This document shows positions 4,477 to 64,000 of a stretch of DNA of 64,000 nucleotides, piece after piece. How positions within the stretch are numbered: the first letter of the stretch is position 1; each line of letters opens with the position of its first letter. The DNA is from Candidatus Omnitrophota bacterium (GTDB taxonomy: Bacteria > Omnitrophota > Gorgyraeia > Tantalellales > Tantalellaceae): contig WJMG01000075.1 in assembly GCA_014728075.1 (NCBI GenBank), forward strand, positions 4,262 through 68,261. The letters are read 5' to 3'. The notes beneath the pieces are model-generated. The model searched no databases. It saw only the letters and a program-made list of their open reading frames with translations, and had not been told where the DNA came from. Made by a program: the position numbers and the translations under genes.

Positions 4477-5175
4477 TCATAAACTCAGCATTCCGGCTTT
4501 GTAAATATAATATTCCCCGAGTAAAATCAATAACAGGGCGAAAATTTTCTGTACCGCTTTCATCGCTTTCTCCGACCTGGGAAGGGAAGAAACTATCCCC
4601 GCGAAAGTTCCGATAACTATCAGAACAACGCCGAACCCGAGAGCGAAAGTAAAAAGCAGCGAGACCCCCAGAACCGGATTCTGGGTGGTTGCCACAAAAG
4701 CGAGCAAAGCCCCCAGCACCGCCGCGGCGCAGGGAGAGGCCACGAACCCGGAGGCGACACCCATAAAGAACACCGAAAGAGGGTGCCCGCTCTTTCCGGG
4801 CTTTCCGGCCCCCGCTCTTGCCAGCAGCAAAGTGGGAAGCGGGATCACATCAACAAGCGCCAGCGCAAAAAATATCATCACATTACCGACGACCAAATAT
4901 ACCAGGGGGTTGGTCTGGAACTGACCGAAAAGCTTTCCGGTCAAGGCCGCGGCGGCGCCCAGCGCGGAAAATGTGACCGCCATGCCCATGACATAGCTTA
5001 CCGAAAGGATAAAGTTCCTGGCCCTTGAGGAATCCCTGCCGGTACCTATCACGCCTACTATAATGGGTATCAACGGATAGACACATGGAGTGAAAGATGT
5101 GGCGAGGCCGCCGAGAAACACGGCTATGAAAGTGACCGGAGAAGGATTGTTCAGGTAATACGAAATATCCTGCAT
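4477..5175 (-). CDS. ccdA: cytochrome c-type biogenesis protein CcdA (DsbD transmembrane domain)
   Basis: Two conserved Cys in TM helices (FTPCVYPLIP, SPCAAAVL). Start set at MQDISYY (ATG 5175) with a GGAAAGGTGA Shine-Dalgarno sequence. Confidence 0.85.
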   Translation of the reverse strand: MQDISYYLNNPSPVTFIAVFLGGLATSFTPCVYPLIPIIVGVIGTGRDSSRARNFILSVSYVMGMAVTFSALGAAAALTGKLFGQFQTNPLVYLVVGNVMIFFALALVDVIPLPTLLLARAGAGKPGKSGHPLSVFFMGVASGFVASPCAAAVLGALLAFVATTQNPVLGVSLLFTFALGFGVVLIVIGTFAGIVSSLPRSEKAMKAVQKIFALLLILLGEYYIYKAGMLSL

Positions 5176-5867: not shown

Positions 5868-6048
5868 ACATCTTCATGAGCTCGCGGGCGAGCTTCATGT
5901 GACCTTTTTCCTCTTCTGCTATCGAGTAAAGGACCTTTCTTATTTCCGGGTCCTCGACCTGTTCGGCGTAATGCCCGTAGAAGGCCTTCGCCCTCTCCTC
6001 GTGAACGAATATCTCCCTGAAATCCGCGTGCAGCATGTCAATATTCAT
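5845..6048 (-). CDS. ferritin-like (rubrerythrin-family) half-domain protein, C-terminal half
   Basis: 67 aa; resembles the C-terminal two helices of the neighbouring rubrerythrin-like protein (FY...V.DP..R..L.SIAEEEKGH.KLAREL, E-x-x-H metal-ligand motif). The ATG overlaps the stop of the upstream 80-aa ORF. Confidence 0.45.
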   Translation of the reverse strand: MNIDMLHADFREIFVHEERAKAFYGHYAEQVEDPEIRKVLYSIAEEEKGHMKLARELMKMCDDERTT

Positions 6049-6280
6049 TTCTGGGGTCCTTTTCTATATTCTTAATAAGGCCTTCAACTGTCTCCTTATG
6101 CCTGGAGGAATCGTTATAGAGCCGCGTAAGGATCTTCTTCATCTTTTGAGCTTTTTCGGCGGGAACGCCTTCGGCGTGATCCAGTATCCCCTTGGAAAAA
6201 TTCGCCAGTGTCGTGACCATTCCCTCCTCCACATAAACTACCTCGTTAAGACCGGCAAGAAGCCTTTCCCTGGATATCAT
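6038..6280 (-). CDS. ferritin-like half-domain protein, N-terminal half (translationally coupled to trxB)
   Basis: 80 aa from ATG 6280, which overlaps the trxB stop (ATGA). Two predicted helices with acidic residues; together with the 67-aa ORF it is about 147 aa, the size of one ferritin-like domain. Confidence 0.4.
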   Translation of the reverse strand: MISRERLLAGLNEVVYVEEGMVTTLANFSKGILDHAEGVPAEKAQKMKKILTRLYNDSSRHKETVEGLIKNIEKDPRNEY

Positions 6281-7430: not shown

Positions 7431-7922
7431 TTAACCTTCTTCACGGTCACAACCTCCCTTAAGGGAGCAAAGCCGGCTCAAATGTTCCTTTTCTTCCGAG
7501 ATCAGCCTCTCTACAAGGCCACGGTCGCTCTCCGGGACCATATTTTTCATTTCCTGGTAAAAGAGAATTGAATCTTTCTCGAACCCTATCCCCAGGGTTA
7601 TACCTTCGGCGTAATCGGATACCGACCCCGCTACTTCCGCGCCCTTGCCTTTTCTGGTAAATACATACTGGGAAGCAAGGGCGTTCATGTACGCGAAATA
7701 CTCTTCCGGGTAGGCTTCCCGGGGTTCATAATCACAGGCCCCTTTGAATATCTTTTCAAAAACGGAAATATGCTGTTCTTCAGCTTCGGCGAGTTCCTTA
7801 AAAGCTTTTCTGGCCTCGGGTTCACCGGTCTTGCCGGCGAGGGCCATATAAAACTCCTTTCCGTTCTTCTCTATCTGTATGCCGAGTTCCACTATTTCAC
7901 ACGCGGAAAAACTGTCAGCCAT
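7431..7922 (-). CDS. rubrerythrin-family ferritin-like diiron protein (no rubredoxin domain)
   Basis: 163 aa with two E-x-x-H motifs (AEAEEQH, SEEKEH) in a four-helix-bundle pattern. Confidence 0.7.
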   Translation of the reverse strand: MADSFSACEIVELGIQIEKNGKEFYMALAGKTGEPEARKAFKELAEAEEQHISVFEKIFKGACDYEPREAYPEEYFAYMNALASQYVFTRKGKGAEVAGSVSDYAEGITLGIGFEKDSILFYQEMKNMVPESDRGLVERLISEEKEHLSRLCSLKGGCDREEG

Positions 7923-8024
7923 ATCATCCTCCGGTAATAGCGTTCAGCGGCAGGCGTTAACACGGGCAAATAAAGAAAACAGCGCGGCCTCAACCCGGCG
8001 CTTAACGCCTGACGCTTGACGCCG

Positions 8025-8600
8025 TTAATAATTCTCAGCCAGAACTTCGTAATAAGACTGCGGATGTTTACACGCGGGGCAGACTTTTGGCGCTTCCTCC
8101 GATTCATGCACGAATCCGCAATTGCGGCAATGCCATTTCACGGGCCGGTCCTTTTTGAAGACCTTCTCCTCTTTGACATTTGCCAGAAGGGCCCTGTACC
8201 GGGCTTCGTGTTCCTTCTCCACCTTGGCTATTTCCCTGTAAGTCTCGGCTATCTCGGGGAACCCCTCTTCTTCGGCGTCCTTGGCGAAATTCTGATAAAG
8301 AACGGTCCATTCCTCTTTCTCGCCGTCCGCGGCGGCTTCCAGATTAGCGGCGGTATCCCCGATCACACCTGCCGGATATCCCGCTGTTATCTCCGCCATC
8401 CCGCCTTCAAGGAATTTGAAGAACCTTTTAGCGTGTTCTTTTTCGTTCTCCGCCGTTTCCGCGAATACAGCGGCTATCTGCTCGTAACCGCCCTTTTTTG
8501 CCACGCTGGCGAAATAAGTGTACCTGTTCCTGGCCTGGGATTCCCCGGCGAAAGAAGCCAACAGGTTCTTTTCCGTTTTCGTTCCTTTTACGCTTGCCAT
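8025..8600 (-). CDS. rbr: rubrerythrin
   Basis: 191 aa; N-terminal diiron ferritin-like domain ([10 protein letters not shown]) plus C-terminal rubredoxin-like CxxC...CxxC (CRNCGF...CPACKHP). Confidence 0.95.
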
Positions 8601-12098: not shown

Positions 12099-13391
12099 TC
12101 AAAAACTATATCTCAGCCTCGCGTAGACATTCTTGTTCTTCCTTACGCTTCCGAATTCCGTCCAGGAATCCCGCCCGAAAGGCAGGTTCGCGCCTACCGT
12201 CAGGTTCCAGGAATCCGTGGCGTCCCAGGAAAGCGAAGGCCTTATGTAGGCGTCCATATCGGACGGCGAGAAAAAAGCAAAGACCGTGGCTTTTACGGTC
12301 TGATTGGCGAAAAATTTTGTTATCCTGCTGGTCACTACATGCCTGAACTCGTCCCATCTGTAATCCATGGGCAGAAGAGCTTTCCTGTATTCCCCGTAGT
12401 CCAGGGTCTGTTCCAGGTAATACTGGAACCCTACCCTCAGGTCGTTCCCCAGGTCCTTTTCGTAACCAAGAAGATACTTCATCATTGAGTTCTGTATCGT
12501 CCTGATATCCCCGTCAGGGTCTTCCGGAGAATAGTAATAAGATACTTCGGCGCTACCTATCCCGCCCATTACCGGACCCCTCAAACTGCCGCCGTAAGCG
12601 TCCAGCCTCTGGTGGTATATCTGGTGACCGGCCTCGTTCTTATAACTCGAAGGGGACGGGTCGAAGCCCCTGTAATAATAAAGGGCCCACTCGTAACTTT
12701 TGATGTTCTTGTAAGCCCGGGCGGCGTACACGAAATTCTTAGGCGTTTCGGAGGGTTCTACCACATGAAGCTCCGAGCTTCTTCCGGCTATCCCTCCCTC
12801 GAAACTGTCGAAAAAACTCACCCTGTCCCCCGTAGGCACATCGTTGGGCTCAAAAAAAGGAATGAACGCGAAGTCAATATTGAACCATTCCGGGTAAACC
12901 ATGATCCGAAGCGCATCGTTAGGTTTTTTCAGGTATTCGTCATCCCGTCCGATAAAGAAAGAGACATAGTCTTTGGGGAACAGATCGTTCAGGAAAAGAT
13001 AGTCTCCCGTTCCCCAGGTAAGCACCTGCCGGCCCGCCCTGATATCCACTATATCCAGAGGAGTGAATACGGCGTTGAGCTCCCTCAGGTCCGTAAGCAC
13101 TTTTCCTCCGTAATAAAAGTCCAGCACGAAATCACATTTTGACTCAATGGCCGTCTGCCATTCCGCAAGGATATTATCACCCGAAAAGTAATAGTCGGCT
13201 CTGAGCTGAAGCCTGGCCTCGGCCATATTGTATTGACGGTGCTTAACATCGTCCGAACCGAACCCGGGCGCGAACGCCTCTTCCAGGAAACCGTGTATTT
13301 CCGGGAACTCAAACTCCTCCGCTTCCGCGTTGACCGTCAAAAAAACACAGACGATCATCAGAAATGCCATGGTAAAACCCGATCTTTTCAT
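12099..13391 (-). CDS. outer-membrane beta-barrel protein (signal peptide, C-terminal aromatic residue)
   Basis: 430 aa, cleavable signal peptide, alternating amphipathic strands, terminal ...RLRYSF. Clustered with LolA-like and MMPL genes. Confidence 0.55.
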   Translation of the reverse strand: MKRSGFTMAFLMIVCVFLTVNAEAEEFEFPEIHGFLEEAFAPGFGSDDVKHRQYNMAEARLQLRADYYFSGDNILAEWQTAIESKCDFVLDFYYGGKVLTDLRELNAVFTPLDIVDIRAGRQVLTWGTGDYLFLNDLFPKDYVSFFIGRDDEYLKKPNDALRIMVYPEWFNIDFAFIPFFEPNDVPTGDRVSFFDSFEGGIAGRSSELHVVEPSETPKNFVYAARAYKNIKSYEWALYYYRGFDPSPSSYKNEAGHQIYHQRLDAYGGSLRGPVMGGIGSAEVSYYYSPEDPDGDIRTIQNSMMKYLLGYEKDLGNDLRVGFQYYLEQTLDYGEYRKALLPMDYRWDEFRHVVTSRITKFFANQTVKATVFAFFSPSDMDAYIRPSLSWDATDSWNLTVGANLPFGRDSWTEFGSVRKNKNVYARLRYSF

Positions 13392-22231: not shown

Positions 22232-22370
22232 ACAACAAAAGAACTCCCTGCTTTTTCCGCGCAGGGAGTTCTTTTGTTTTCTCCTCCCTACGCCGGCATT
22301 AACCGGATCAGGTCAACGGGTAATCCGACTTCATCGGAACTCTCAGAAGGACCAGCCTCCTCCCCGGGAT
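22232..22370 (-). ncRNA. TPP (thiamine pyrophosphate) riboswitch with terminator expression platform
   Basis: Minus-sense sequence carries the conserved GGGGAG...CUGAGA...ACCC...UGACCUGAUCCGGUUAAUGCCGGCGUAGGGA core. It is followed by hairpin AAAAGAACUCCCUGC/GCAGGGAGUUCUUUU plus a U-rich tail, about 80 nt upstream of thiS. Confidence 0.85.
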
Positions 22371-22505
22371 ATCTTTTTTTTCACATATTATAAAGGACCT
22401 CCCGGTCATATCCTGTCGAGCGGCCTTTATCCAAGACCTCAAAAAAACCGAAGATCCTCAAATGAAATTAGACCATAATACTACAGTAAAGTCAATATAT
22501 TGATA

Positions 22506-47086: not shown

Positions 47087-47115
47087 TTAACTAACACTAG
47101 TTTACTCCTAGTTAA
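47087..47115. promoter_or_regulatory. candidate Rrf2 operator (TTAACTAACACTAGTTTACTCCTAGTTAA)
   Basis: Inverted repeat AACTA-N4-TAGTT and outer TTAACTA...TAGTTAA, 15-45 nt upstream of the Rrf2 start. Confidence 0.35.
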
Positions 47116-47177
47116 AGGCAAAGTCAAGTCTTTTTTTGATGATTATCCGGTCAAAAAACAGGTATCAGCAGGAAGGC

Positions 47178-47636
47178 CTAAAAGGCGGAGAATAATTGTT
47201 CTTTAACGATGTCCAGAATATCTGATATTCTGGATTTTACTGTTTCGGAGAGATCAAGGTCATATCCCGTGTTCTCGGGCTGTACACCGATCACGGTTAT
47301 CCCGCAGTCGATCCCGAGCTTTTCGGCCAGCGTGAGGGTCTCGAGAAGCGCCATGCCGTGGGTCGAAACACTGTCGGAAAGATCGGCCTTTTTGATATCG
47401 CCCGGGCCGAACACCCGGATATCGCCCGGTTCAAGGTTCATGTCCGCGGCATCGATTATAATGGCCCGGCCTCCCTCGGGAAGGTATTTCAAAAGGTCCA
47501 TACCCGATATATCGGCTCCGTGCAGCTCGACATCGGGAGGGAATTTTTCCTTCTTGAGCTCGTCTATGACGCGCATTCCTATTCCGTCATCGCCCCGCAA
47601 TATGGAACCGACACCGATTATGAGGGTTTTTTTCAT
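47178..47636 (-). CDS. hydrogenase maturation protease
   Basis: 152 aa HyaD/HybD/FrhD family (IIGVGSILRGDDGIG...). Confidence 0.85.
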   Translation of the reverse strand: MKKTLIIGVGSILRGDDGIGMRVIDELKKEKFPPDVELHGADISGMDLLKYLPEGGRAIIIDAADMNLEPGDIRVFGPGDIKKADLSDSVSTHGMALLETLTLAEKLGIDCGITVIGVQPENTGYDLDLSETVKSRISDILDIVKEQLFSAF

Positions 47637-47721
47637 AACAACTAAAAGGCACAGGTAAAGGCAGAGGCATAGAAAAAGGTATTATTTCTTTACCTTTACC
47701 TATGCCTCTATCCGAGCTCTC

Positions 47722-49062
47722 TTATACGAACTTTACATCCAGAAGATGGCAGGAGCAGGAAATGCAGGGATCGTAAGCCCTTACCAGCATTTCCGAGAGA
47801 AGCGTTATCTCCTCTTCCGACTTGCCGATGATCTCCGGTATCAGCTTCTTCATATCAAGGTCCACATTGGCAAGGTTCTGGTTCGTTGGTATACAGCAGT
47901 TCGCTTCGGTAACCACGGCTTTTTCGTCGGCCGTGTAGTCGTGGATAAGAAGGCCCCTCGGCACTTCCACGGCGCCTACTCCCCTTCCCTTCTTCACTTT
48001 GAAAGAAGGCCATTCGTCCCTGGTGGGCCAGGATGTCACAACATCATCGTAATCCACCCCGTTCTCCAGGAAATGGTCTATTATCCTTATCGCGTCGTAA
48101 GTACAATGCGCTATCTCGACCACCTGGGCTACGGTGTTCATGAACGGGTTGTAACAGGGAGCCTTCAAGCCCAGCTCTTCCGCGACGGCCTTGGCCTCGT
48201 CGTTAAGCTGTCCGCTGTTTATATTGAACCTCGCGAGGGCACCCACCATGTAGGAGTCCCGCTTGTTACGCGAATGCTTGGCCGTTGAATGGGCGGCATG
48301 GTACTCGTGGACTATTTCCATATAGTCCCCGGGCTTTACCGTGCCCGAAATATCGCTCGTCGTAAGTTCCCCTTCGTAGAACGCGTATTCGTCGGGATGC
48401 GTTAACGCCACATATTCCGTCTCCCTTTCGAAGTCGGGAAGCTTCACGGATTTGAATATCTCGACTGTCTCTTTCAGGTCGTCAAGCTGCCCGGTGAAGA
48501 TCTCCTTCATCTTTTCCAGTTCTTTTTTCGAAGGCAGCTTGGTCCACCCCCTCGGGCATACGCTGATAGGATGGGTATGCCTTCCGGCCATTATATCGCA
48601 CATGTCACTGTACTGGCGTTTCATACGAAGAGCCCTAAGCACCACATCTTTATGGGTCTTTATGAGAGGGACCACGCTCGGAGCCCCGAGCGCGTCCGGA
48701 GCCACCAGAAAATACGCGTGAAGAAGATGGCTGTCAAGGGTCTCGAGGTGAAGTATCAGCTTCCTGAAAAGTTTGGTCTGCTCGCTCACCTCGTAGCCCA
48801 TGGCCCCTTCCGCGGCCTGCACCGAGGCCATGCAATGGCCCGTCGAACAGATACCGCATATCCTGGAAGTTATATGCTGGACCTCAAAAAGGGACCTTCC
48901 TCTTACCATGGCCTCGAAAAAGCGGGGCGCCTCGACTATTTCCAACTGGCACTTTTCCAGCTTCCCCTCTTTCACATTGACCACGATGTTCCCGTGGCCC
49001 TCCACCCTGGTTATATACTCGACATTTATGTTCAGGTCTTTTTTGGCAAGTTCTCCGCTCAT
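47722..49062 (-). CDS. hydA: [NiFe]-hydrogenase large subunit, group 3 (sulfhydrogenase alpha-like)
   Basis: N-terminal RICGICSTGH and C-terminal DPCISCSCH Ni-binding motifs (Cys, not Sec) followed by a short cleavable extension. Confidence 0.9.
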   Translation of the reverse strand: MSGELAKKDLNINVEYITRVEGHGNIVVNVKEGKLEKCQLEIVEAPRFFEAMVRGRSLFEVQHITSRICGICSTGHCMASVQAAEGAMGYEVSEQTKLFRKLILHLETLDSHLLHAYFLVAPDALGAPSVVPLIKTHKDVVLRALRMKRQYSDMCDIMAGRHTHPISVCPRGWTKLPSKKELEKMKEIFTGQLDDLKETVEIFKSVKLPDFERETEYVALTHPDEYAFYEGELTTSDISGTVKPGDYMEIVHEYHAAHSTAKHSRNKRDSYMVGALARFNINSGQLNDEAKAVAEELGLKAPCYNPFMNTVAQVVEIAHCTYDAIRIIDHFLENGVDYDDVVTSWPTRDEWPSFKVKKGRGVGAVEVPRGLLIHDYTADEKAVVTEANCCIPTNQNLANVDLDMKKLIPEIIGKSEEEITLLSEMLVRAYDPCISCSCHLLDVKFV

Positions 49063-52840: not shown

Positions 52841-53845
52841 CTAACAGATCCTCGGCAGCTGTTCGCCCGTTAACATATCGATTATCCTGGCGACCCCGTA
52901 TTTTGTCCTGACACAGACCTTTCCCGGGTTTTCGCCGGTAACTTCGCCGATCACGGCCGCCTCGCGCCCGTATTCGCAGGATCTAAGGGCCGCCAGGACT
53001 TCCTTCCCGGCCGCCGGGTCTACCATCATCACCGCTTTTCCTTCGTTGGCCATATAAAGCGGATCAAGCCCCAGAAGTTCGCACCCCCCTCTTACCGCGT
53101 CCGATACAGGTATACTCGCCTCTTCCAGCGTTATCCCCAGCGCGGTCCCCCGGACAGCTTCGTTAAGTGTCGTGGCCAGGCCGCCTCGCGTAGGATCACG
53201 CATAAAATCCACACCGGGAACATCACGAACAAGGGCTCCCAGCATTCCGTTAAGCGGAGCGCAATCGCTCTCGAGAGGGGTATCGAATTCCAGCCCTTTG
53301 CGTTTACTGAGAACGGCAAGCCCGTGATCCCCGAGAGTTCCCGTGACGATCACCTTATGGCCGGCCCTGATCTTCCCGGCCGAAGGCCTGGACTCCGAGG
53401 TAAAGACCCCTATACCCGAAGTATTTATGAACAAGCCGTCAGCTTCTCCCCTCCCCACGACTTTAGTATCCCCGGCTACTATTTTAACCCCGGCCTCGTT
53501 CGCGGCGGAGGCCATTGAAACAACTATTCTCTCAAGCTCTTCAAGTGAAAAACCTTCCTCAATTATGAACCCGCAGCTTATGTACCTGGCTTCCGCTCCC
53601 TGAACGGCGAGATCGTTCACCGTACCGCATATCGCGAGCTTGCCTATATCTCCTCCCGGAAAGAACACCGGCTTTATGACGAACGAATCTGTCGTAAAAG
53701 CTATTTCCCCGCTTTCGACAGCTACAACGGCCGAATCCTCCGTCCTCTCCAGGACCTCGTTGCCCAGTTCCCTGAAGAAAAGGCCCTTTATAAGCTCGTA
53801 TGTCTTTTTCCCGCCCGATCCGTGGGCAAGCGTTATTCGTTCCAT
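52841..53845 (-). CDS. hypE: hydrogenase maturation protein HypE
   Basis: 334 aa PurM-like; C-terminal ...PRIC. Confidence 0.9.
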   Translation of the reverse strand: MERITLAHGSGGKKTYELIKGLFFRELGNEVLERTEDSAVVAVESGEIAFTTDSFVIKPVFFPGGDIGKLAICGTVNDLAVQGAEARYISCGFIIEEGFSLEELERIVVSMASAANEAGVKIVAGDTKVVGRGEADGLFINTSGIGVFTSESRPSAGKIRAGHKVIVTGTLGDHGLAVLSKRKGLEFDTPLESDCAPLNGMLGALVRDVPGVDFMRDPTRGGLATTLNEAVRGTALGITLEEASIPVSDAVRGGCELLGLDPLYMANEGKAVMMVDPAAGKEVLAALRSCEYGREAAVIGEVTGENPGKVCVRTKYGVARIIDMLTGEQLPRIC

Positions 53846-53974
53846 CGTATTCCTTCGGAATAAAGTTACAATTTACAGACTACAAGGAAAAAGCAGACCA
53901 TCAAATTAAAATAACTATCCCGAAAAAAGCATCTATTTCTTTTTCCTTTTTCCTTGTAACTTTTTCCTTTTAGT

Positions 53975-55060
53975 CTAATTTCCGTATTTATACCATGCGG
54001 CGCAGGCGCCTTCGCTTGAGACCATGCAGGCGCCTTTTGGACCTTCCGGAATACAGGCCTTCCCGAAAAGAGGACAATCCGACGGGTCCTTAGCTCCTCT
54101 TAATATGTCCCCGCAAATACATCCGGGGAATTCCGCCGACGGCGGAACATCCACCTTGAACCTTACCCCGGCGTCAAGACCGGAATATTCTTTTCTGAGC
54201 TTCAGCCCGCTGTCAGGGATCATTCCCAGCCCTCTCCACTCAGCGTCACAGGGCTCAAAAACCCGGTCTATTATCGCGCAGGCCTTTCTGTTCCCTTCTT
54301 CCCTGACGGCGCGCCGGTAAGCATTTACCAGGCGCGGCCGGCCTTCTTCATGGGACTCTACCAGAAAATATATCGCGGAAAGCACATCGGCCGGCTCGAA
54401 CCCGGACACACAGCAAGAAACGCCGAGATCGTTCACTATCGGCCTGTATATCCCGGTGCCCGTTATCGTACTTACATGCCCCGGACAGATAAGGGCGTCT
54501 ATCCTGGAATCCTCGCCGGAAAGAACGGCCTTAAGCGCGGCGGGCATTGTCTTGTTCAACGAAAGAACGAAAAAATTATCGATATTCTCCTTTTTCGCCT
54601 GCAATACCGCGGCGGCGGCGGTAGGAGCTGTCGTCTCGAACCCTATACTCAGGAAAATAAAATCCTTATCCTTCTCTTCGGCCGCAAAAGACAGGGCGTC
54701 GTGCACCGAGTAGACCGTTCTTACATCCGCTCCCCCGGCCCGCGCCTTTTCCAGGCTGCTCCGGGAACCGGGCACACTGAACATATCCCCGAAAGTGCAG
54801 AGAACGGTGTTCCCGCATTCTGAAAGAGCTATGGCTCTGTCCATGTCCGAAATGGAAGTAACGCAAACGGGGCATCCCGGCCCGGATATCAGATTGATAT
54901 TATCACCGACAAGTTCATGAATACCATGCTTCCTTATGGACATGGTATGCCCTCCGCAGACTTCCATTATGTTCAGCTGTTTCGAGGAGAGTCCCTTTAT
55001 CCTGGAGGAAATTTCCCCGACGAGCCCGGCGTCCCTGTACTCATCAAGATATTTAAGCAT
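53975..55060 (-). CDS. hypD: hydrogenase maturation protein HypD
   Basis: CGGHT, GPGCPVC and CPVC Fe-S motifs; start set at MLKYLDEY. Confidence 0.9.
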   Translation of the reverse strand: MLKYLDEYRDAGLVGEISSRIKGLSSKQLNIMEVCGGHTMSIRKHGIHELVGDNINLISGPGCPVCVTSISDMDRAIALSECGNTVLCTFGDMFSVPGSRSSLEKARAGGADVRTVYSVHDALSFAAEEKDKDFIFLSIGFETTAPTAAAAVLQAKKENIDNFFVLSLNKTMPAALKAVLSGEDSRIDALICPGHVSTITGTGIYRPIVNDLGVSCCVSGFEPADVLSAIYFLVESHEEGRPRLVNAYRRAVREEGNRKACAIIDRVFEPCDAEWRGLGMIPDSGLKLRKEYSGLDAGVRFKVDVPPSAEFPGCICGDILRGAKDPSDCPLFGKACIPEGPKGACMVSSEGACAAWYKYGN

Positions 55061-55274
55061 CCCGACCGCCCTTTTTGAAAAAATCCAGGGTGAACTTCGC
55101 TCTTTCCTCGTCGACTTTCTGTATGGCGTATCCGGCATGGACCAGAACATACTCTCCCGGGGCCGGGTCATCTATAAGGTCCGTTGAAACGGGCCTTTTT
55201 ATCCCCGACAGTTCAATAACCGCGGTATTATCGTTCCTGACCTCAAGAATTTTACCGGGGACGCTCCAACACAT
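55053..55274 (-). CDS. hypC: hydrogenase maturation protein HypC
   Basis: 73 aa starting MCWSVPGKI (the MC(L/W)(A/S)VP signature); overlaps hypD start by 8 nt. Confidence 0.85.
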   Translation of the reverse strand: MCWSVPGKILEVRNDNTAVIELSGIKRPVSTDLIDDPAPGEYVLVHAGYAIQKVDEERAKFTLDFFKKGGRDA

Positions 55275-57268: not shown

Positions 57269-59101
57269 TCAAGTCCTTTTCCTTTTTCCCAGGAGTATAA
57301 TGTCCCTCAGGCCGGCCTCGTCCTCCGCATCCATCCATTTTTTCTCAAACGCGGGATCTTCCACTATCTGGGCAATGGCGGAGAGCGCCCTCAAATGAAA
57401 AGGCCTTTCGTCCCTGGACCCTGCGATAACGAAAACCGCGTTCACACCGCTGTGGGCTCCGGGAAAGAAAATACCCTGCCGGCACCTGGCGATAAAAAGC
57501 AGGAACTGGTGCTCGCCGTTAACTATTATATGCGGAATGGCCAGTCCGGGCTTGAGCACGGTACTTGCCTGCTCCTCCCTGTCAAGAAGAAGCCTGAAAA
57601 CCTCCGAGGGAGAACAGTCCAGGCGACTGGCTATCTCGACGGCTATATCCCGAAAAAAATCCTCGGCGGTCATTTTGTTCGGTATATCGACCACGACACA
57701 TTCCTCGACTATCCTGTCAAAACGGTCTTTTTCTATATTATCCCTCTCCCTTATAATATCCCTCAGTTCCGTTTCAAGCGAGATATCCATGAACTCCTTG
57801 GCCGCGACCCTTTCGATAAGGTGCAGAAAAGCGAAATCTTTTTTTCCTCTCTGTCTTCCGTAGAACCAGTAAACGCTTAGGCCCGCCGCGAAAAGAAAAG
57901 ACCCCAGTATGAGCGCCGCTTTGCCTATATTAACTACCAGAAGCCAGCAGCCGAAAACACCGGCTATCTGCAGCCAGGGATAAAAAGGCGCCCTGAATTT
58001 GGGCTGGTAATTACGCACACCGCTTTCCCTCATAACTATTACGCACAGGCAGGAAAATATAAAGGTGAAGATCAGGACCGTAGAGGCTACTTTCACCAGG
58101 AGATCGAGTTTAAGGAAAAGCGCGCTTGCCATAAGTATTCCGGTAAGAAGAATAGCCGCGAAAGGTGTGCTTGTCTTCCTGTTTATCTTACCGAAGGCTG
58201 GAGGAAGCAGCCTGTCCCGGCTTAAAGCCAGCGGATAGCGTGAAGCAGACATTATCCCGGCGTTGGCCGTTGATATAAAAGCCAGTATGGCGGCAAAACC
58301 CAGAGCGATCCTTCCCGGGTGGTTTAAAAAGGCTTCCGCGCCGTCGGAAATAGGCGTCAGCGACTTGTCAAGTTCCCCGGAATCCAGAACCCCGCTTGTA
58401 ACATAGACCACAAGAGCGTAAACCACCGTTATCAAAACAAGAGAAAGTATCATGCCTCTGGGCACCGTCTTTCCGGGATCCTGCACCTCTTCAGCTATGC
58501 TGGCTATCTTCAAAAGGCCTCCGTAGGATACGAACACGAAACCGGCCGCGGAAAAAACGGGCACCATGCCGTACGGCGCGAAGGGTCGCAGGTTCGCGTG
58601 ATCTACCGCGGGAAACCCTTTCACTACATAAAAGGACAGTATACCGAGAAGAAGCACCACTATCGCTACCTGCACGCGGCTGGCTTCTTTTACTCCTACA
58701 AGGTTCAACGCGACAAAAAGCACACAAAGGCCAAGAGCGATGTATTTGATATCCCAGGGAACCACGGCGGAGGTAAAGGCCGCCATCCCTATAAGGGCGA
58801 AAGAGCTTTTGAGAGTTATGGACATCCATGTCAAAAGACCGTTTATGGTGCCGAGGGCGGGGCCCATGCTCCGTGTAACATAAAAATAGGTCCCTCCCGC
58901 CCTGGGCATAGCGGAAGCCAGTTCAGCCTGGCTGAGCATACCTGTCATAGCCAGAAGTCCCGCGAGCAGATAAGACACTATAACGGCCGGTCCCGCCATC
59001 GCGTGCGCAAGACCGGGAAGTATGAAAAGGCCCGAGCTTATCATCGCGCCGGAAGCGATACAGAAAACATCCAGCAATTTCAGTTCTCTTTTGAGTTCCA
59101 T
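57269..59101 (-). CDS. APC-family amino acid permease fused to a C-terminal PTS EIIA(Ntr/Fru type-2)-like domain
   Basis: 12 TM helices from MELKRELKLLDVF; C-terminal soluble domain with the LAIPH active-site-His context of PTS_EIIA_2. Confidence 0.7.
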   Translation of the reverse strand: MELKRELKLLDVFCIASGAMISSGLFILPGLAHAMAGPAVIVSYLLAGLLAMTGMLSQAELASAMPRAGGTYFYVTRSMGPALGTINGLLTWMSITLKSSFALIGMAAFTSAVVPWDIKYIALGLCVLFVALNLVGVKEASRVQVAIVVLLLGILSFYVVKGFPAVDHANLRPFAPYGMVPVFSAAGFVFVSYGGLLKIASIAEEVQDPGKTVPRGMILSLVLITVVYALVVYVTSGVLDSGELDKSLTPISDGAEAFLNHPGRIALGFAAILAFISTANAGIMSASRYPLALSRDRLLPPAFGKINRKTSTPFAAILLTGILMASALFLKLDLLVKVASTVLIFTFIFSCLCVIVMRESGVRNYQPKFRAPFYPWLQIAGVFGCWLLVVNIGKAALILGSFLFAAGLSVYWFYGRQRGKKDFAFLHLIERVAAKEFMDISLETELRDIIRERDNIEKDRFDRIVEECVVVDIPNKMTAEDFFRDIAVEIASRLDCSPSEVFRLLLDREEQASTVLKPGLAIPHIIVNGEHQFLLFIARCRQGIFFPGAHSGVNAVFVIAGSRDERPFHLRALSAIAQIVEDPAFEKKWMDAEDEAGLRDIILLGKRKRT

Positions 59102-59267
59102 GTCTTGAATCCTTCCGAATATTTTTAACGGCAAACATTAAGAAGATCTTAGCTGGAGGTCATAGCCGTTTGGAAAGCGTCAAAGTGTCATCCCTCGGCC
59201 TAACCTCGCTTGTGTCAAAGTGTCAAAGTAAAACCAGACGATAGAATCACATATTCAAGGCACAGTA

Positions 59268-59323
59268 GGCCTTTCGCCCTTCGCCTTTTGCCTTTCGCCC
59301 TTCGCCTCTCGCCTCGTCCCCCC
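59268..59323. repeat. 21-bp tandem repeat (CCTTTCGCCCTTCGCC...), about 2.5 units
   Basis: Direct tandem copies in the divergent permease/GT2 promoter region. Confidence 0.7.
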
Positions 59324-59445
59324 GATCCTTACTGAATGTACTAAAATTATACCTTATTACTCCCAAATAACAAGCAAAGCTTCCGGAACGATAATCCTTT
59401 GCCAAAACCGGAATGTACTATATAATATTGCGAAAGGTATTTCCC

Positions 59446-60180
59446 ATGAATAAGCTAAAAGAACTTTCGGTATTTTTTCCCGCGTACAACGAGGAAGGCA
59501 ACATAAAGGATACGGTTTCAAAAGCCCTTTCCTTTCTGCCCGATATCTCGGAAACCTTCGAGGTCATTATTGTCAATGACGGCTCCATCGACGGTACGCC
59601 ACGCGTAGCCGGGGAGCTCGCGGCGGAATTCCCTCAGGTCAGACTGGTAAACCATGACCATAACAGGGGCTACGGAGCAGCTGTGCGAACGGGTTTTTCC
59701 GAATCCAGATACGGCTATATCTTTTTCACCGACGGGGACGGCCAGTTCGATATCCGTGAACTGCGGGATTTTCTCCCCCTTATATCCGAATGCGACATCG
59801 TAGCCGGATACAGGATCAGACGGAACGACCCTTTCTACCGCCTGATAAACGCGAAAGCGTACAACCTTCTGGTCCGCCTGCTCTTCGGGTTAAAAGTCCG
59901 TGATATAGACTGCGCCTTCAAGATAATAAGGAAAAAAGTAGTTGATTCCCTTGAACTCAAGAGCGAAAGCCAGTTCGTAAGCGCCGAGTTCCTGGTCAAA
60001 GCCCGAAAAAAAGGCTTCACCATAAAACAGAAAGGCGCTCACCACTTTCCCCGCAAGGAAGGGGCTCCCACGGGTAACAGCATATCTGCGATAGTGAATT
60101 CCTTCCGTGAACTTTTCGCTCTGCGGGGAGAGTTGTCGCGAAAGGAAAACAATGAAAATTCTCAGGGCTTACGAAAATAA
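59446..60180 (+). CDS. family 2 glycosyltransferase (polyprenyl-phosphate sugar transferase, DPM1/ArnC-like)
   Basis: FFPAYNEEGNI ... VIIVNDGSIDGT ... DGDGQ motifs. Confidence 0.85.
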   Translation: MNKLKELSVFFPAYNEEGNIKDTVSKALSFLPDISETFEVIIVNDGSIDGTPRVAGELAAEFPQVRLVNHDHNRGYGAAVRTGFSESRYGYIFFTDGDGQFDIRELRDFLPLISECDIVAGYRIRRNDPFYRLINAKAYNLLVRLLFGLKVRDIDCAFKIIRKKVVDSLELKSESQFVSAEFLVKARKKGFTIKQKGAHHFPRKEGAPTGNSISAIVNSFRELFALRGELSRKENNENSQGLRK

Positions 60181-61531
60181 GATCTCGCCGGACATTCTGA
60201 TCATCCTCACGGTCTCTTCGATCGTTCTCTTATGGAACCTCGGAACCGGCAGCCTGTGCTCATGGGACGAAGGATTATACGGCGGGGTTACCCGTGAAAT
60301 AATACATACGGGTAACTGGATAGACCTTAGGTGGGCCGGGCAGCCCTGGAGCGATAAACCCCCTCTTTACATGTGGGTAACGGCTCTTTTCTCGAGGGTC
60401 CTAGGATTAAATGAGTTGTCCGTAAGGTTGTTTTCGGCGCTTGCCGGCGTAGGGACGGTTCTGCTCACTTACCTTACGGCTCTTAAGCTTTACTCCAGGA
60501 AAGAAGCCTTTTCCTCAGCCCTGGTCCTTCTTTCAACCTGGGCTTTCCTATGGTCCTCTAAAATGGGCATGCTTGACATTCCCATGACCTTTTTTATCGC
60601 GCTCGCGATATGCCTTTTCGAATACGGAAAAGACAACAGGCTATGCCTTTTCCTCTCCCCTCTGGCTTTTACGGGAGCCTTCCTGACCAAAGGTATGGGC
60701 GCCATGCTCATACCGCTGATACTGGGGCTTTATATCCTTATATCAGGCAGGATAAAAATCCTCAAAGACCCGGCTCTGATCTGCGGTACTATTACCGCTC
60801 TGGCGCTTTCGGCGATATGGCCTCTCGCGGCCGCGGGAGCTTACGGCAAAGAGTTTATCGATGACTATTTCCTAAAACATCTGGTCACCAGGACAACAAA
60901 AGCCGTTGAAGGCCACACGGGAGGGCTCTTCACCTATTTCGGCGTTCTGCCTAATAAGGGGCGGCCATGGGCAGGTATAGGCCTCGCCCTCTCTCCTCTG
61001 CTCATCTGGAGGACCATACGCTTCCGCGAAAAAGAGCACCTGCTTCCGCTCGTGTGGACCTTTACAGTGCTTCTTCTCTTCAGCGCGGTCCGCACCAAAC
61101 TGCACTGGTATGTGATGCCCGTCTACCCGGCGCTGGCGATCATCACCGGATGGGGCGCCGCAAAGCTCTTGAAAAGCCGCGTTTTCATAATGATGCCTCT
61201 TCTCTGCGCCCTTTCTCTTTTTTATCTTGCGACGGAAAAAAACATCTTTGATCTCGACTATTCCCCGGAGACAAAAATGTTCGCCGAAAGCGCTTTGAAC
61301 CTCGGGGAATGCGGCAAACCTCTCTATGCCTACAAGGTCAGCGATCCGGGGCTTCAGTTCTACCTGACCGGAAAAACGCTTCGCGTATACGATACCGAAA
61401 AGATAAAATTAACGATGAGATCCGGCAAGAATTATGTGGTCACGAACAGAAGAGAACTTAAACACCTGAAAGGCGAGCCTTACAGCATTGTACTCGAAGA
61501 GGATAACTTCGTGCTGATACGGAGTGAGTAG
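60152..61531 (+). CDS. GT-C family glycosyltransferase (family 39 / ArnT-PMT-like)
   Basis: About 460 aa, multi-TM; first periplasmic-loop motif SWDEGLYG and downstream KPPLYMW. Confidence 0.8.
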   Translation: MKILRAYENKISPDILIILTVSSIVLLWNLGTGSLCSWDEGLYGGVTREIIHTGNWIDLRWAGQPWSDKPPLYMWVTALFSRVLGLNELSVRLFSALAGVGTVLLTYLTALKLYSRKEAFSSALVLLSTWAFLWSSKMGMLDIPMTFFIALAICLFEYGKDNRLCLFLSPLAFTGAFLTKGMGAMLIPLILGLYILISGRIKILKDPALICGTITALALSAIWPLAAAGAYGKEFIDDYFLKHLVTRTTKAVEGHTGGLFTYFGVLPNKGRPWAGIGLALSPLLIWRTIRFREKEHLLPLVWTFTVLLLFSAVRTKLHWYVMPVYPALAIITGWGAAKLLKSRVFIMMPLLCALSLFYLATEKNIFDLDYSPETKMFAESALNLGECGKPLYAYKVSDPGLQFYLTGKTLRVYDTEKIKLTMRSGKNYVVTNRRELKHLKGEPYSIVLEEDNFVLIRSE

Positions 61532-61606: not shown

Positions 61607-62593
61607 TCACATGAACCTGATCTTCTTTCCGGCACCCCGCTTGAGCGCCTTTCTGTAGATAAGGTCAGCTACAACTATATCCTGCACAGCCAGCCCGGTG
61701 GAATCAAATACGGTTATTTCTGTTTCTTTAAGCCTTCCTTTCTTTTTTCCTGATACTATCTCCCCTATATCAGCATATACATTTCTCCTTGTAATGCTCT
61801 TTCTCCGCAGCGGAACATTGATCTCCCCGCTATGGGAAGCCTGCTCCCATGAGTCCACCACAAGCCTCGAATGCTTAAGGATAGACGGCTCCAGCTCCTG
61901 TTTCCCCGGGGCGTCGGCGCCTATGGCGTTTATGTGAGCGCCTTCTTTAAGCCAGGAAAGCTTCACGATGGGCTTTCTGGCGGGTGTCGTCGTCACTATT
62001 ATATCGGCCCCTTTTACACATTCCCGAGGGGTCCCCGCAGGCAAAAGATCAACACCTCTTACCTTTACGCTGCTGCAGAAGTTTTCGGCCTCTTTGCCGG
62101 TTTTTCCCCAGACCCTCGCCTCCTTAATGACGCGAACCGCCGCAAGCGCTTCCAGCTGTGAACAAGCCTGTCTGCCGCATCCAACGAGAGCGACCGTCTC
62201 CGAGGCCTTTGCCGACATATATTCGGCAGCGACCCCGCCCGCGGCTCCCGTCCTCAGCGCGGTCGCGAGAGTAGCGTCCATAACCGCCAGGGGGAAACCA
62301 CTACGGGGGTCGCTCAATATCATGAGCCCCATGACCGTGGGGAGCCCCTTTCTCCTGTTCCCGGGATGCACATTGACCCACTTTATTCCGGCCCTATCCA
62401 CCGCTTCGTCATATACGGGCATGGCCCTCAGGTCTCCGTTGTGTTTTTTGAAGTACAGATAAACTTTAGGCGGCATCTGGACCTTTCCTCTTCCGTAATC
62501 CTTAAAACCCTTTTCCACTGCCTTTACGGCATCTTTTATAGAGACCAGTTTTTTTATCGTTTTCTGATCGATGATAAGAGTGTGTTTGTTCAT
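61607..62593 (-). CDS. ornithine cyclodeaminase / mu-crystallin family protein
   Basis: 328 aa, NAD-binding VGCGRQA motif, OCD/mu-crystallin sequence pattern. Confidence 0.75.
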   Translation of the reverse strand: MNKHTLIIDQKTIKKLVSIKDAVKAVEKGFKDYGRGKVQMPPKVYLYFKKHNGDLRAMPVYDEAVDRAGIKWVNVHPGNRRKGLPTVMGLMILSDPRSGFPLAVMDATLATALRTGAAGGVAAEYMSAKASETVALVGCGRQACSQLEALAAVRVIKEARVWGKTGKEAENFCSSVKVRGVDLLPAGTPRECVKGADIIVTTTPARKPIVKLSWLKEGAHINAIGADAPGKQELEPSILKHSRLVVDSWEQASHSGEINVPLRRKSITRRNVYADIGEIVSGKKKGRLKETEITVFDSTGLAVQDIVVADLIYRKALKRGAGKKIRFM

Positions 62594-62695
62594 AAGTGTC
62601 CCCGTTGCACAGATAAAGGCACAGGCAGAGATATAGATATTGGTTGCTCCAGGATACTGTTTCTTTACCTTTACCTATACCCGCACCTTAAATAA

Positions 62696-64000
62696 TTACT
62701 TCCCATGGATCTTCCGCGCTATCCTTAATCGCCTGTCGTAGTCCCTGACCATTTTTATCACCACCCCGCTCAGCCCCAGAAGCGCTACGAGGTTCGGAAA
62801 AGCCATAAAGGCATTGGCTATATCGGCCAGGTTCCAGATAAATTCCAGTTTAACTACAGCCCCCACCGGTATCAAAACACAATAAATCCATTTATAAGCT
62901 CTTACTGCTTTTTCCCCTAAGAGGTAATACACACACCTGTCCCCGTAATAAGACCAGGCGATGGTAGTGGAAAGCGCGAAAAAGACAAGTCCGAAACCTA
63001 CGACGATATCTCCTCCCACTCCTCCCATTGAATGATTGAAAGCGGACGCGGTAAGAGTGGCGCCGTTGAGGCCGGTCGACCATTTTCCTGATACGATTAT
63101 TACAAGAGCCGTAAGAGTACATATGACCAGCGTATCCACGAACGGTCCCAGCATGGCGACAAGGCCTTCGCGCACGGGTTCGTTCTCCCTGGCGGCCGCG
63201 TGAGCGATCGGCGCCGACCCCAGGCCCGCCTCGTTGGAAAAAAGACCGCGGGCTATGCCCATCCTCATCGTGTAAAGTACAGCCGACCCGGCAAATCCTC
63301 CGGCAGCGGCGGTAGGCGTGACGGCGTGACGGCATATCAGACAGAATGCCGGCGCTATCTTTTCGGCGTTGGCGATAAGGATATATAACGCACTTAAAAA
63401 ATACACACCGCACATCAACGGCACTATTACCTGTGTTACACCGGCTATTCTCCTTATACCGCCCACTATCACAAGCCACACGAGCACTGCCAGAACGACG
63501 CCAGTTATCGCGGGCGCAACGCCGGCGGAACTTTCCAGAACATCCGCGACCGAATTCGACTGTACCATATTGCCTATGAAAAGCGCCGTTACCATCCCGC
63601 AAAACGCGAATATAACGGCAAGCCACCTGGCGTTCATACCCTTTTCAAGATAATACATGGGACCCCCGGCTACTTTCCCGCGGGCGTCGAACTGCCTGTA
63701 TTTCAAGGAAAGAGCGCACGAAGCGAATTTGAGCCCCATACCGAAAAAGCCGGTTATCCACATCCAGAAGACGGCCCCGGGTCCTCCCAGGGCTACGGCA
63801 GTAGCTACTCCCGCTATGTTCCCGGTCCCTATGGTAGCTGATAAGGCTGTGCTGAGAGCCTGAAAATGCCTGATCTCTCCCTTGTGCCTGGGGTCTTCAA
63901 AGTGCCCCAGGGTAACCCTGACGGCGTGGAAGAATTCCCGGACCTGGATGAACCGGGAACGAAAAGAATAATATATTCCCGTACCGAGAAGCAGCGCCAT
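62696..64000 (-). CDS. sodium:alanine (AGCS family) symporter, N-terminus probably beyond the window
   Basis: Multi-TM; GTGNIAGVATAVALGGPGAVFWMW signature of alanine/glycine:cation symporters; ORF runs to the window edge. Confidence 0.85.
   Translation of the reverse strand: MALLLGTGIYYSFRSRFIQVREFFHAVRVTLGHFEDPRHKGEIRHFQALSTALSATIGTGNIAGVATAVALGGPGAVFWMWITGFFGMGLKFASCALSLKYRQFDARGKVAGGPMYYLEKGMNARWLAVIFAFCGMVTALFIGNMVQSNSVADVLESSAGVAPAITGVVLAVLVWLVIVGGIRRIAGVTQVIVPLMCGVYFLSALYILIANAEKIAPAFCLICRHAVTPTAAAGGFAGSAVLYTMRMGIARGLFSNEAGLGSAPIAHAAARENEPVREGLVAMLGPFVDTLVICTLTALVIIVSGKWSTGLNGATLTASAFNHSMGGVGGDIVVGFGLVFFALSTTIAWSYYGDRCVYYLLGEKAVRAYKWIYCVLIPVGAVVKLEFIWNLADIANAFMAFPNLVALLGLSGVVIKMVRDYDRRLRIARKIHGK

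Follow-up and report, generated by a model that had tools for sequence, protein, structure and literature searches.

Does the short spacer between the NiFe hydrogenase large-subunit gene hydA and the maturation protease gene hycI in a Candidatus Omnitrophota metagenome-assembled genome (MAG) hold a regulatory RNA belonging to this operon, or a sequence that arrived in it from elsewhere? The spacer lies in a 64,000-nucleotide (nt) stretch of contig WJMG01000075.1 (assembly GCA_014728075.1), the whole of which we analyzed and hereinafter call the window. An earlier note made from the letters of this stretch had described the spacer as one of two copies of a structured intercistronic element with a pseudoknot-like topology; the second copy separates a sodium:alanine symporter gene from a gene of the ornithine cyclodeaminase (OCD)/mu-crystallin family. 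We find the repeat to be genuine and the pseudoknot to be spurious: both spacers (copies A and B; Table 1) are made of two facing arrays of a 6-nt unit, an architecture that recurs in gene spacers of roughly ten phyla and that also flanks genes coding for PF05635 proteins. With a probability of about 0.6, we take copies A and B to be open reading frame (ORF)-less, miniature members of a dispersed selfish element of the intervening-sequence (IVS) type, whose stem is likely processed by RNase III.

The minus-strand letters of the two spacers are as the earlier note quoted them, and its shared block is indeed there as an identical 19-nt string, ATAGGTAAAGGTAAAGAAA. The 16-mer ATAGGTAAAGGTAAAG is present exactly twice within the window, and a search of the window for the two-arm pattern matched only copies A and B (0.00 matches expected from 100 shuffles); taken together, these results mean that the repeat is real and not a chance resemblance. 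Weaker pattern matches at 47108-47123 and 60641-60659 were rejected as elements. Each copy runs from the stop codon of one minus-strand gene to the ATG of the next co-directional one, as had been claimed, and the hydA-hycI spacer consists almost wholly of the element. The number of units in the 5′ and 3′ arms is 3-4 and 4, respectively, in copy A, where three regular GGYANA units are accompanied by one degenerate unit in the 5′ arm, and 4 and 5 in copy B. The loop of copy A reads G-AAATAATACCTTTTT-C, in keeping with the family rule of a G plus A-rich start and a T-rich end plus C, and its inner portion is paired with the last purine unit.

The topology proposed for copy A was an a-b-a′-b′ arrangement of two helices. 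In the 101-nt fold of this copy, helix a comprises nt 22-31 and helix b nt 31-38, such that the two overlap by 1 nt while a′ and b′ are 1 nt apart. The geometry is thus not that of an H-type pseudoknot (loop 1 = -1 nt, i.e., an overlap; loop 3 = 1 nt), and as no connecting loops are left, the two helices cannot coexist. Since the arms are tandem arrays of 6-nt units, they can pair in registers shifted by whole units, and the four units of the 3′ arm of copy A, one more than in its 5′ arm, make a second register possible. The two helices are two such alternative registers, and the pseudoknot is an artefact of the 6-nt periodicity: a plain, nested hairpin has the minimum free energy (-34.8 kcal/mol; z = -4.6 against shuffled sequences), and when the b-b′ pairing is imposed, the outcome is again a nested hairpin, with the register shifted (-33.7 kcal/mol). 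The GU wobble by which copy B was said to keep this pairing is ordinary unit variation (TTTACC vs TTTATC) with no compensatory change.

One might nevertheless regard the element as an H-type cis-regulatory RNA that controls translation of a downstream gene devoid of a Shine-Dalgarno sequence. The favorable z-score of copy A is consistent with this, as is the greater stability of the mRNA sense over the antisense in both window copies (-34.8 vs -26.5 kcal/mol in copy A; -28.2 vs -18.8 kcal/mol in copy B). No GGAG, GAGG, or AGGA tetramer precedes either ATG, so the earlier note was right on the letters; the lack does not set these spacers apart, however, because 59% of the window ORFs have no such tetramer anyway. 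Shine-Dalgarno use seems low in this Omnitrophica MAG as a whole, with a tetramer at -20 to -4 in 25 of 61 ORFs by a crude count (greedy ORFs of ≥100 amino acids [aa] with uncurated start codons). Moreover, beyond the refuted topology, a regulatory role is contradicted by the tie between sense and antisense stability and the lack of covariation across the family, by the unrelated genes that lie downstream of the element in many phyla, and by its absence from seven of seven orthologous spacers (all below). We accordingly hold such a regulator to be hardly credible. An Rfam scan, suggested in the same note, gave no match to any family at the gathering threshold for either copy; at permissive E-values it recovered only generic long hairpins (microRNA precursors) at 12-21 bits, against cut-offs of 62-100. 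What survives of the original interpretation is a real, repeated, hairpin-forming intercistronic element, stripped of both the pseudoknot and the dedicated control of an operon.

The history of the spacer is informative in this regard. A Candidatus Omnitrophica MAG encodes a protein with 100% identity to the HydA of the window. As exact searches of an assembly index with the window HycI and HydA yielded no match, the hydA locus of the window was compared with seven further Omnitrophota loci that have the same hyp/hyd gene order and HydA proteins 78-85% identical to that of the window. The element was sought throughout these loci (~100 kb together) and is present in none of them, the hydA-hycI spacer included; there, the two genes either overlap or are separated by 5, 14, 145, or 234 nt of unrelated sequence. 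This absence points to a gain of the element in the lineage of the present MAG, where it would have entered the hydA-hycI and symporter-OCD spacers. Judged from these sequences, copies A and B appear to be neither a conserved cis-regulatory RNA nor an ancestral part of their operons. A hydrogenase operon of another phylum seems to have been colonized as well, at a different spacer: in a Nitrospinota MAG (L026), a hexamer-array element at 2936-2992 separates a 258-aa ORF, presumed to be the hydrogenase small-subunit gene, from a homologue of the window HydA (42% identity).

The genome-wide search that the earlier note had advised shows that the element occurs far beyond the two window copies, so that the refuting condition stated in that note does not hold. 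Scanning one genome per prokaryotic species with the two-arm pattern, for which we estimate about four chance matches, recovered at least 119 stretches from roughly ten phyla, with many MAGs holding several copies. Among the matches listed are Desulfuromonadota/Geobacteraceae, Nitrospirota, Nitrospinota, Omnitrophota, Elusimicrobiota, KSB1, Latescibacterota, Ignavibacteria, WOR-3, and Clostridia. The 129 elements that we analyzed (from 120 genome loci and the window) share one architecture, namely a 5′ array (GGYANA)n of 2-7 units, a loop of 7-50 nt (median 19) that is first A-rich and then T-rich, and a 3′ array (TNTRCC)n, with the consensus order CA, (GGTARA)n, G plus an A-rich run, a T-rich run plus C, (TYTACC)n, and TG. 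GGTAAA is the commonest unit (392), followed by GGTAGA (209), GGCAAA (64), GGTATA (46), and rarer variants. Built in this way, an element reads purine array first and pyrimidine array second whichever strand is taken, copies A and B included; by their arms, polarity, placement, and multiplicity the window copies are members of this family. Like them, the other elements fill the spacer, beginning at a median of 11.5 nt past the upstream stop codon and ending 22.5 nt ahead of the next start. Several orthologous spacers (e.g., those of L013/L044, L045/L070/L102, L040/L057, L043/L105, and L064/L080) retain an element in different species, with changes in the number and order of its units and in its loop.

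By gene context, 74 elements lie between co-directional, 13 between convergent, and 6 between divergent genes. The excess of convergent over divergent placement, the family flanks (A-rich on the 5′ side, TG and then T-rich on the 3′ side), and the string CCTTTTAGTTGTT directly after copy A would all suit a partial intrinsic terminator or attenuator that reduces transcription of the downstream cistron. Against this, most copies lie within operons, some 20 nt ahead of a gene whose expression is required, and in the full-length form described below a whole gene occupies the loop. The stems are also long, AT-rich, and interrupted, and the loops are large. An identity as an intrinsic terminator was rejected for the window copies, neither being called by a consensus terminator scan and copy B having no T tract after it; we consider a weaker terminator-like action decidedly unlikely.

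Two further observations concern the family at large. Typical elements are carried by three predicted viral contigs of IMG/VR (L122, L123, and L124), of which the 13-kb L124 has three (4820-4876, 6050-6102, and 12651-12695), the flanks of the last being those also seen around the single copies of L122 and L123. In 16 Geobacteraceae/Desulfuromonadales loci (e.g., L113 at 2974-2996 and 6002-6024, L045, L070, and L102), a module of ~22 nt, GTGAGCGAAGCGAACGAATACC, is inserted within one hexamer-array arm, always at a TACC/GGTA unit boundary, and it is retained at orthologous sites of three species. The module contains GCGAAGC, which we take to be a very stable DNA mini-hairpin motif. The two elements of L113 that bear it lie 2.9 kb apart, and their identity as a composite transposon was considered and rejected because GTGAGCGAAGCGAACGAATACC is a small insertion inside one arm and the genes in between are ordinary operon genes.

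A link to a protein family comes from a Nitrospirota MAG (L037), in which a five-unit purine array and a five-unit pyrimidine array are separated by ~370 bp instead of a short loop. The gene between them encodes a 121-aa protein with matches to PF05635 (E = 1.5e-33) and TIGR02436 (four helix bundle protein; E = 2.2e-32) and a weak, sub-threshold match to the retroelement protein Avd; a solved homologue (PDB 2GSC) was deposited as five chains. Products of this family are the four-helix-bundle "23S rRNA intervening-sequence proteins," relatives of Avd. Using the L037 protein, we fetched 80 metagenomic loci with relatives, 74 of which had enough flanking sequence, and in 72 of these hexamer arrays lie within ~100 nt of the PF05635 gene. 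A pyrimidine array is found downstream in 65, a purine array upstream in 50, and both in 44, as against 36/894 (pyrimidine downstream) and 32/894 (purine upstream) background control windows from the same loci. The purine array ends at a median of 12 nt, often just 1-3 nt, before the ATG, and the pyrimidine array starts at a median of 15 nt after the stop codon; the arrays thus flank the gene in such a way that the ORF sits in the loop of a hexamer-array hairpin. These genes share the orientation of their neighbors, and some clades of the cassettes have unit variants such as GGTTGA or GGCTAA.

The window copies resemble these cassettes in detail. GAAATAA at the loop start of copy A matches the leader seen before PF05635 ORFs in full-length cassettes. 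More generally, the loops of the window copies open with strings, GAAATAAT and GAAACAGT, that agree with the leaders of cassettes, GAAATAAGGA-ATG and GAAACAATAAGG among them. Both an ORF-bearing copy (L188) and one devoid of an ORF (L082) have thiC directly downstream. With the cassettes of rRNA, the window copies have in common the terminal inverted-repeat stem; they have no ORF in the loop, they do not lie at helix 25 or 45 of 23S rRNA, and an Rfam scan of the window found no rRNA. Judging by these features, they would be at most ORF-less derivatives of the PF05635 cassette. The metagenomic cassettes themselves show two further patterns. In five loci (L140, L149, L159, L167, and L185) the cassette directly precedes a gene whose product starts M..LVTGG(A/C)GFIG, of the NAD-dependent epimerase/dehydratase type, which suggests a preference for polysaccharide-biosynthesis operons. 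In four others (L146, L156, L142, and L155) a complete purine-pyrimidine hairpin stands on each side of the PF05635 gene, which is thereby outside the loop, and a conserved ...GCGAAGCCTCGC immediately precedes the ORF in the clades concerned.

We also asked what is constrained in the units themselves. Positions 1, 2, 4, and 6 are nearly invariant, position 3 is a pyrimidine, and position 5 is free. Across the stem, position 5 displays no covariation (observed/expected: A-T 112/111, G-T 73/65, A-C 54/50, and G-C 24/29), and when the order of units is shuffled in one arm the real order pairs no better, if anything worse (mean rank 0.66, the ranks being coarse). Nor is there a transcribed-strand bias: of the 74 elements between co-directional genes, half (37) fold better on the transcribed strand and half (37) on the opposite one. 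Thus, the family bears no mark of selected RNA structure beyond the two facing arrays, whereas the 6-nt unit is under strong selection or a strong generating rule. Strict unit conservation without covariation is an unusual signature, which points to a putative reader of 6-nt units.

These results bring in the main rival of the processing hairpin, namely that the arrays are read by a multimeric protein, each subunit of which would recognize one GGYA-A unit; the nucleic acid read would be double-stranded DNA, single-stranded RNA, or single-stranded DNA, and the hairpin would be a by-product. The candidate readers would be a nucleoid-associated protein (IHF/HU) or a pentameric PF05635 protein. 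The freely varying position 5 amid four near-invariant positions, with no covariation, argues for selection on the unit motif and is no less compatible with an array bound by protein than with a stem for RNase III. Also compatible with such a reader are the lack of a slippage signature in the unit order, the retention of the element in orthologous spacers despite changed units and loops, and the five chains of 2GSC, as is the polarity of the arrays (purine-first 129, opposite 0, among arrays ≤80 nt apart, in a sample selected for purine-first and with about seven pairs being independent finds). In viral contigs, the pyrimidine-first arrangement gave only coding-like or chance matches, in a non-rigorous comparison of three contigs per arrangement. 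Moreover, Aklujkar et al. had guessed at IHF/HU sites for similar repeats of Geobacter metallireducens (PMC2700814). Against such a reader, units repeated every 6 bp do not stay in phase with the helix of DNA, the window has no PF05635 gene, and placement right after operon stops together with a sense ORF in the loop favors a logic at the level of RNA rather than DNA. We therefore judge protein reading of the arrays, with the hairpin as a by-product, to be unlikely.

Could the arrays instead be neutral, microsatellite-like palindromes that grew in place by slippage at pre-existing hairpins, with neither a shared origin nor a function? Such growth would account for orthologous copies that differ in the number and order of units, and the window does hold other short-unit (heptamer) arrays. 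It sits badly with a unit common to about ten phyla, the strictly polar order of the two arrays, and the tight association with one protein family. Furthermore, neighboring units are as alike as expected for independent units (AA 164, AG 100, GA 98, and GG 53), and this chance-level likeness argues against simple slippage. We rate this explanation below even the terminator; together with the pseudoknot regulator, these two readings fit the data poorly.

We are thus led back to an IVS-type selfish element as the best explanation. The loop of its full-length form holds a PF05635/TIGR02436 gene of ~120 aa that is read co-directionally with the operon around it, and the ORF-less copies would be derived from ORF-bearing ones. 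In a polycistronic mRNA the element would fold as a long, imperfect, nested hairpin slipping between registers, the stem most likely being cut by RNase III or otherwise acting as a processing or stability point between cistrons, and not as a sensor or switch; the element may affect hycI expression. RNase III processing is proposed by analogy with the rRNA IVSs of the same build in Coxiella, Leptospira, and Salmonella.

Several results weigh against this explanation. The fold of copy B is no more stable than those of shuffled sequences (z = -0.78), and selection seems, from the unit statistics, to bear on the unit motif and not on perfect pairing. No target-site duplication is seen, and to our knowledge PF05635 proteins have no known transposition activity. 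All six frames of the window were searched with the PF05635 profile, and no homologue emerged; in the ~0.9 Mb of genome loci plus the window there is one PF05635 gene against ~130 ORF-less hairpins. This ratio leaves the direction of derivation unproven, and the PF05635 gene might instead insert into pre-existing hairpins. A bolder proposal, possible though in our view rather doubtful, would unite the hexamer-array hairpins and the PF05635 gene in one cross-phylum mobile element, of which the rRNA IVSs would be a special case and whose units would be read one per subunit by a pentameric Avd-like protein or a host factor. If true, it would provide the PF05635/TIGR02436 family, long an orphan, with both a role and a nucleic-acid ligand, and ordinary operon spacers would have been colonized in at least ten phyla, mostly by ORF-less hairpins.

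Table 1. Coordinates of copies A and B, their parts and neighboring genes, and other repeats and features of the window
Feature	Position	Strand	Details
Copy A, entire hydA-hycI spacer	47637..47721	-	Nested hairpin, -34.8 kcal/mol
Copy A, 5′ (purine) arm	47688..47713	-	GGATAGA GGCATA GGTAAA GGTAAA G
Copy A, loop	47673..47687	-	AAATAATACCTTTTT; 15 nt
Copy A, 3′ (pyrimidine) arm	47648..47672	-	CTATGC CTCTGC CTTTAC CTGTGC C
NiFe hydrogenase large subunit (hydA)	47722..49062	-	PF00374; group 3b-type hydBGDA operon; upstream of copy A
HycI-type hydrogenase maturation protease	47178..47636	-	PF01750; downstream of copy A
Copy B, entire symporter-OCD spacer	62594..62695	-	
Copy B, 5′ (purine) arm	62663..62687	-	GGTGCG GGTATA GGTAAA GGTAAA G
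Copy B, loop	62637..62662	-	26 nt; starts AAACAGTA (G-AAACAG)
Copy B, 3′ (pyrimidine) arm	62607..62636	-	CTATAT CTCTGC CTGTGC CTTTAT CTGTGC
Sodium:alanine symporter	62696..64000	-	PF01235; runs off window end; upstream of copy B
Ornithine cyclodeaminase/mu-crystallin family gene	61607..62593	-	PF02423; downstream of copy B
Heptamer inverted repeat	7935-8027	-	GCGTCAA GCGTCAG GCGTTAA, 41-nt loop, TTAACGC CTGCCGC TGAACGC; just upstream of rubrerythrin gene 7431-7922
Complex inverted repeat, GGAAAA-type units	53862-53976	-	Between 53975-55171 and 52841-53845, hyp cluster
Six tandem 7-nt units (YTTCGCC)	59270-59314	+	Spacer between 57269-59134 (-) and 59413-60180 (+)
TPP riboswitch	22268-22376	-	RF00059; 73.3 bits, E = 1.5e-12
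Perfect 18-bp inverted repeat	22234-22278		Overlaps riboswitch end

The window has other repeats of related aspect (Table 1). The heptamer inverted repeat near the rubrerythrin gene has the build of the hexamer element with another unit, and recalls the heptamers of the Coxiella IVS and of G. metallireducens. The complex repeat in the hyp cluster, which reads AAGGAAAAAGGAAAAAG and then, downstream, CTTTTTCCTTGTAGTC, with a second nested pair GTTACAA/TTGTAAC, may be a diverged relative of the hexamer element. The tandem array of YTTCGCC units has no facing array nearby. Separately, the 18-bp inverted repeat at the end of the thiamine pyrophosphate (TPP) riboswitch may be its expression-platform terminator.

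For the window, this analysis removes a false lead: in place of a pseudoknotted regulator of hydrogenase maturation there are probably two insertions of a selfish hairpin. As such, the feature itself would be an ordinary insertion, and the interest lies in the wider family and its tie to an orphan protein. The grammar (GGYANA)n-loop-(TNTRCC)n marks intercistronic spacers across many uncultured anaerobic phyla, and gene callers and RNA-motif searches should recognize it because it yields strong but meaningless "structured RNA" signals. Three matters are tied together by the tight PF05635 association: the "multicopy hexanucleotide repeats" of Geobacter genomes, how 23S rRNA IVSs originated, and the role of the PF05635 proteins, which form a very large family with a relationship to the retroelement protein Avd. 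Should the stems indeed be RNase III sites, the expression of neighboring cistrons would be uncoupled; as cultured Geobacter and Geomobilimonas strains carry the elements, this can be tested there.

Among known systems, the IVSs of 23S rRNA are similar in architecture. That of Coxiella burnetii, which has been described as selfish, consists of a 28-bp terminal-repeat stem with an S23p (PF05635) ORF in the loop and tandem GACAGAT heptamers upstream of the ORF, whose number varies between strains and at the first of which RNase III cuts; the Salmonella and Leptospira IVSs are likewise excised by RNase III (PMC4990558). In common with the present elements, these IVSs have an inverted-repeat stem, a sense PF05635 ORF in the loop, purine-rich tandem repeats before the ORF, and short forms devoid of an ORF (Salmonella). 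Unlike them, the present elements occupy spacers of mRNA operons instead of the 23S rRNA helix 25 or 45 and have arms that consist wholly of 6-nt units, and the window copies are ORF-less; RNase III cleavage, demonstrated for the rRNA IVSs, is here proposed on the strength of the shared build.

Dispersed palindromes of the repetitive extragenic palindromic (REP)/bacterial interspersed mosaic element (BIME) type and of the MITE (miniature inverted-repeat transposable element) type (REP, ERIC, Correia, and Chunjie) are similarly multicopy, hairpin-forming, and mostly extragenic, often following operon stops, and can serve as mRNA stabilizers or processing sites. REPs, however, are GC-rich palindromes of 20-40 bp, bear GTAG or CGTC as a tag, and are associated with RAYT transposases; a REP/BIME identity was rejected, since the present arms are periodic and about one-third GC, with GTAG only inside GGTAGA units. 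MITEs have fixed terminal repeats and target-site duplications, in contrast to the variable-length arrays of a degenerate 6-nt unit seen here, whose arms are inverted and vary in length and unit order and whose flanks (A-rich/CA vs TG/T-rich) are inverted and not direct. Also rejected was the Chunjie MITE of G. uraniireducens (178-235 bp, fixed 21-bp terminal repeats, and 9-bp direct repeats).

Literature searches for the repeat strings in full text returned only unrelated primers and microsatellites, and a generic search on hexanucleotide intergenic palindromic repeats returned only REP and MITE reviews. In the literature searchable by us, we found no paper that links hexamer repeats to PF05635 genes or reports their cross-phylum spread, and no described link of S23p/PF05635 to tandem-repeat flanks outside rRNA.

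The closest known systems also include the repeats of Geobacter. In G. metallireducens, paired opposite-strand tandem repeats of 5-8 nt were described as "global regulator binding sites" of classes 1-4, with a guess at IHF/HU sites (Aklujkar et al., 2009; PMC2700814). Like the present elements, they are multicopy and intergenic, with 3-5 short units facing a like array at a variable distance; their units differ (GTTGCTYN, TCTCCGTS, MTYCTGA, and CCYTC), and the IHF/HU proposal was made without a test. "Hexanucleotide repeats, consensus [TCTYWA]n TCT" were listed at 34 places in G. bemidjiensis (Gbem_R6001-R6034), mostly between co-directional genes and including several opposite-strand pairs, with one repeat adjoining a gene annotated as "ribosomal protein S23, putative" and no function proposed (Aklujkar et al., 2010; PMC2996986, Table S6 and Figure S6). 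As in our family, they fill spacers such as dnaN-recF, murG-murC, accB-accC, nifEN-nifX, and hypF-hypC, and the opposite-strand pairs, 20-90 nt apart, amount to the same purine-then-pyrimidine inverted build. They differ in having a YCTYWA (AGATAA-type) rather than a CCTNTA (AGGTAA-type) unit, and they were described for one genome, with neither a link to PF05635 nor hairpin formation being drawn. In light of these precedents, we rate the IVS architecture and the type of unit of the Geobacter repeats as known, and the location in mRNA spacers and the spread across multiple phyla as new.

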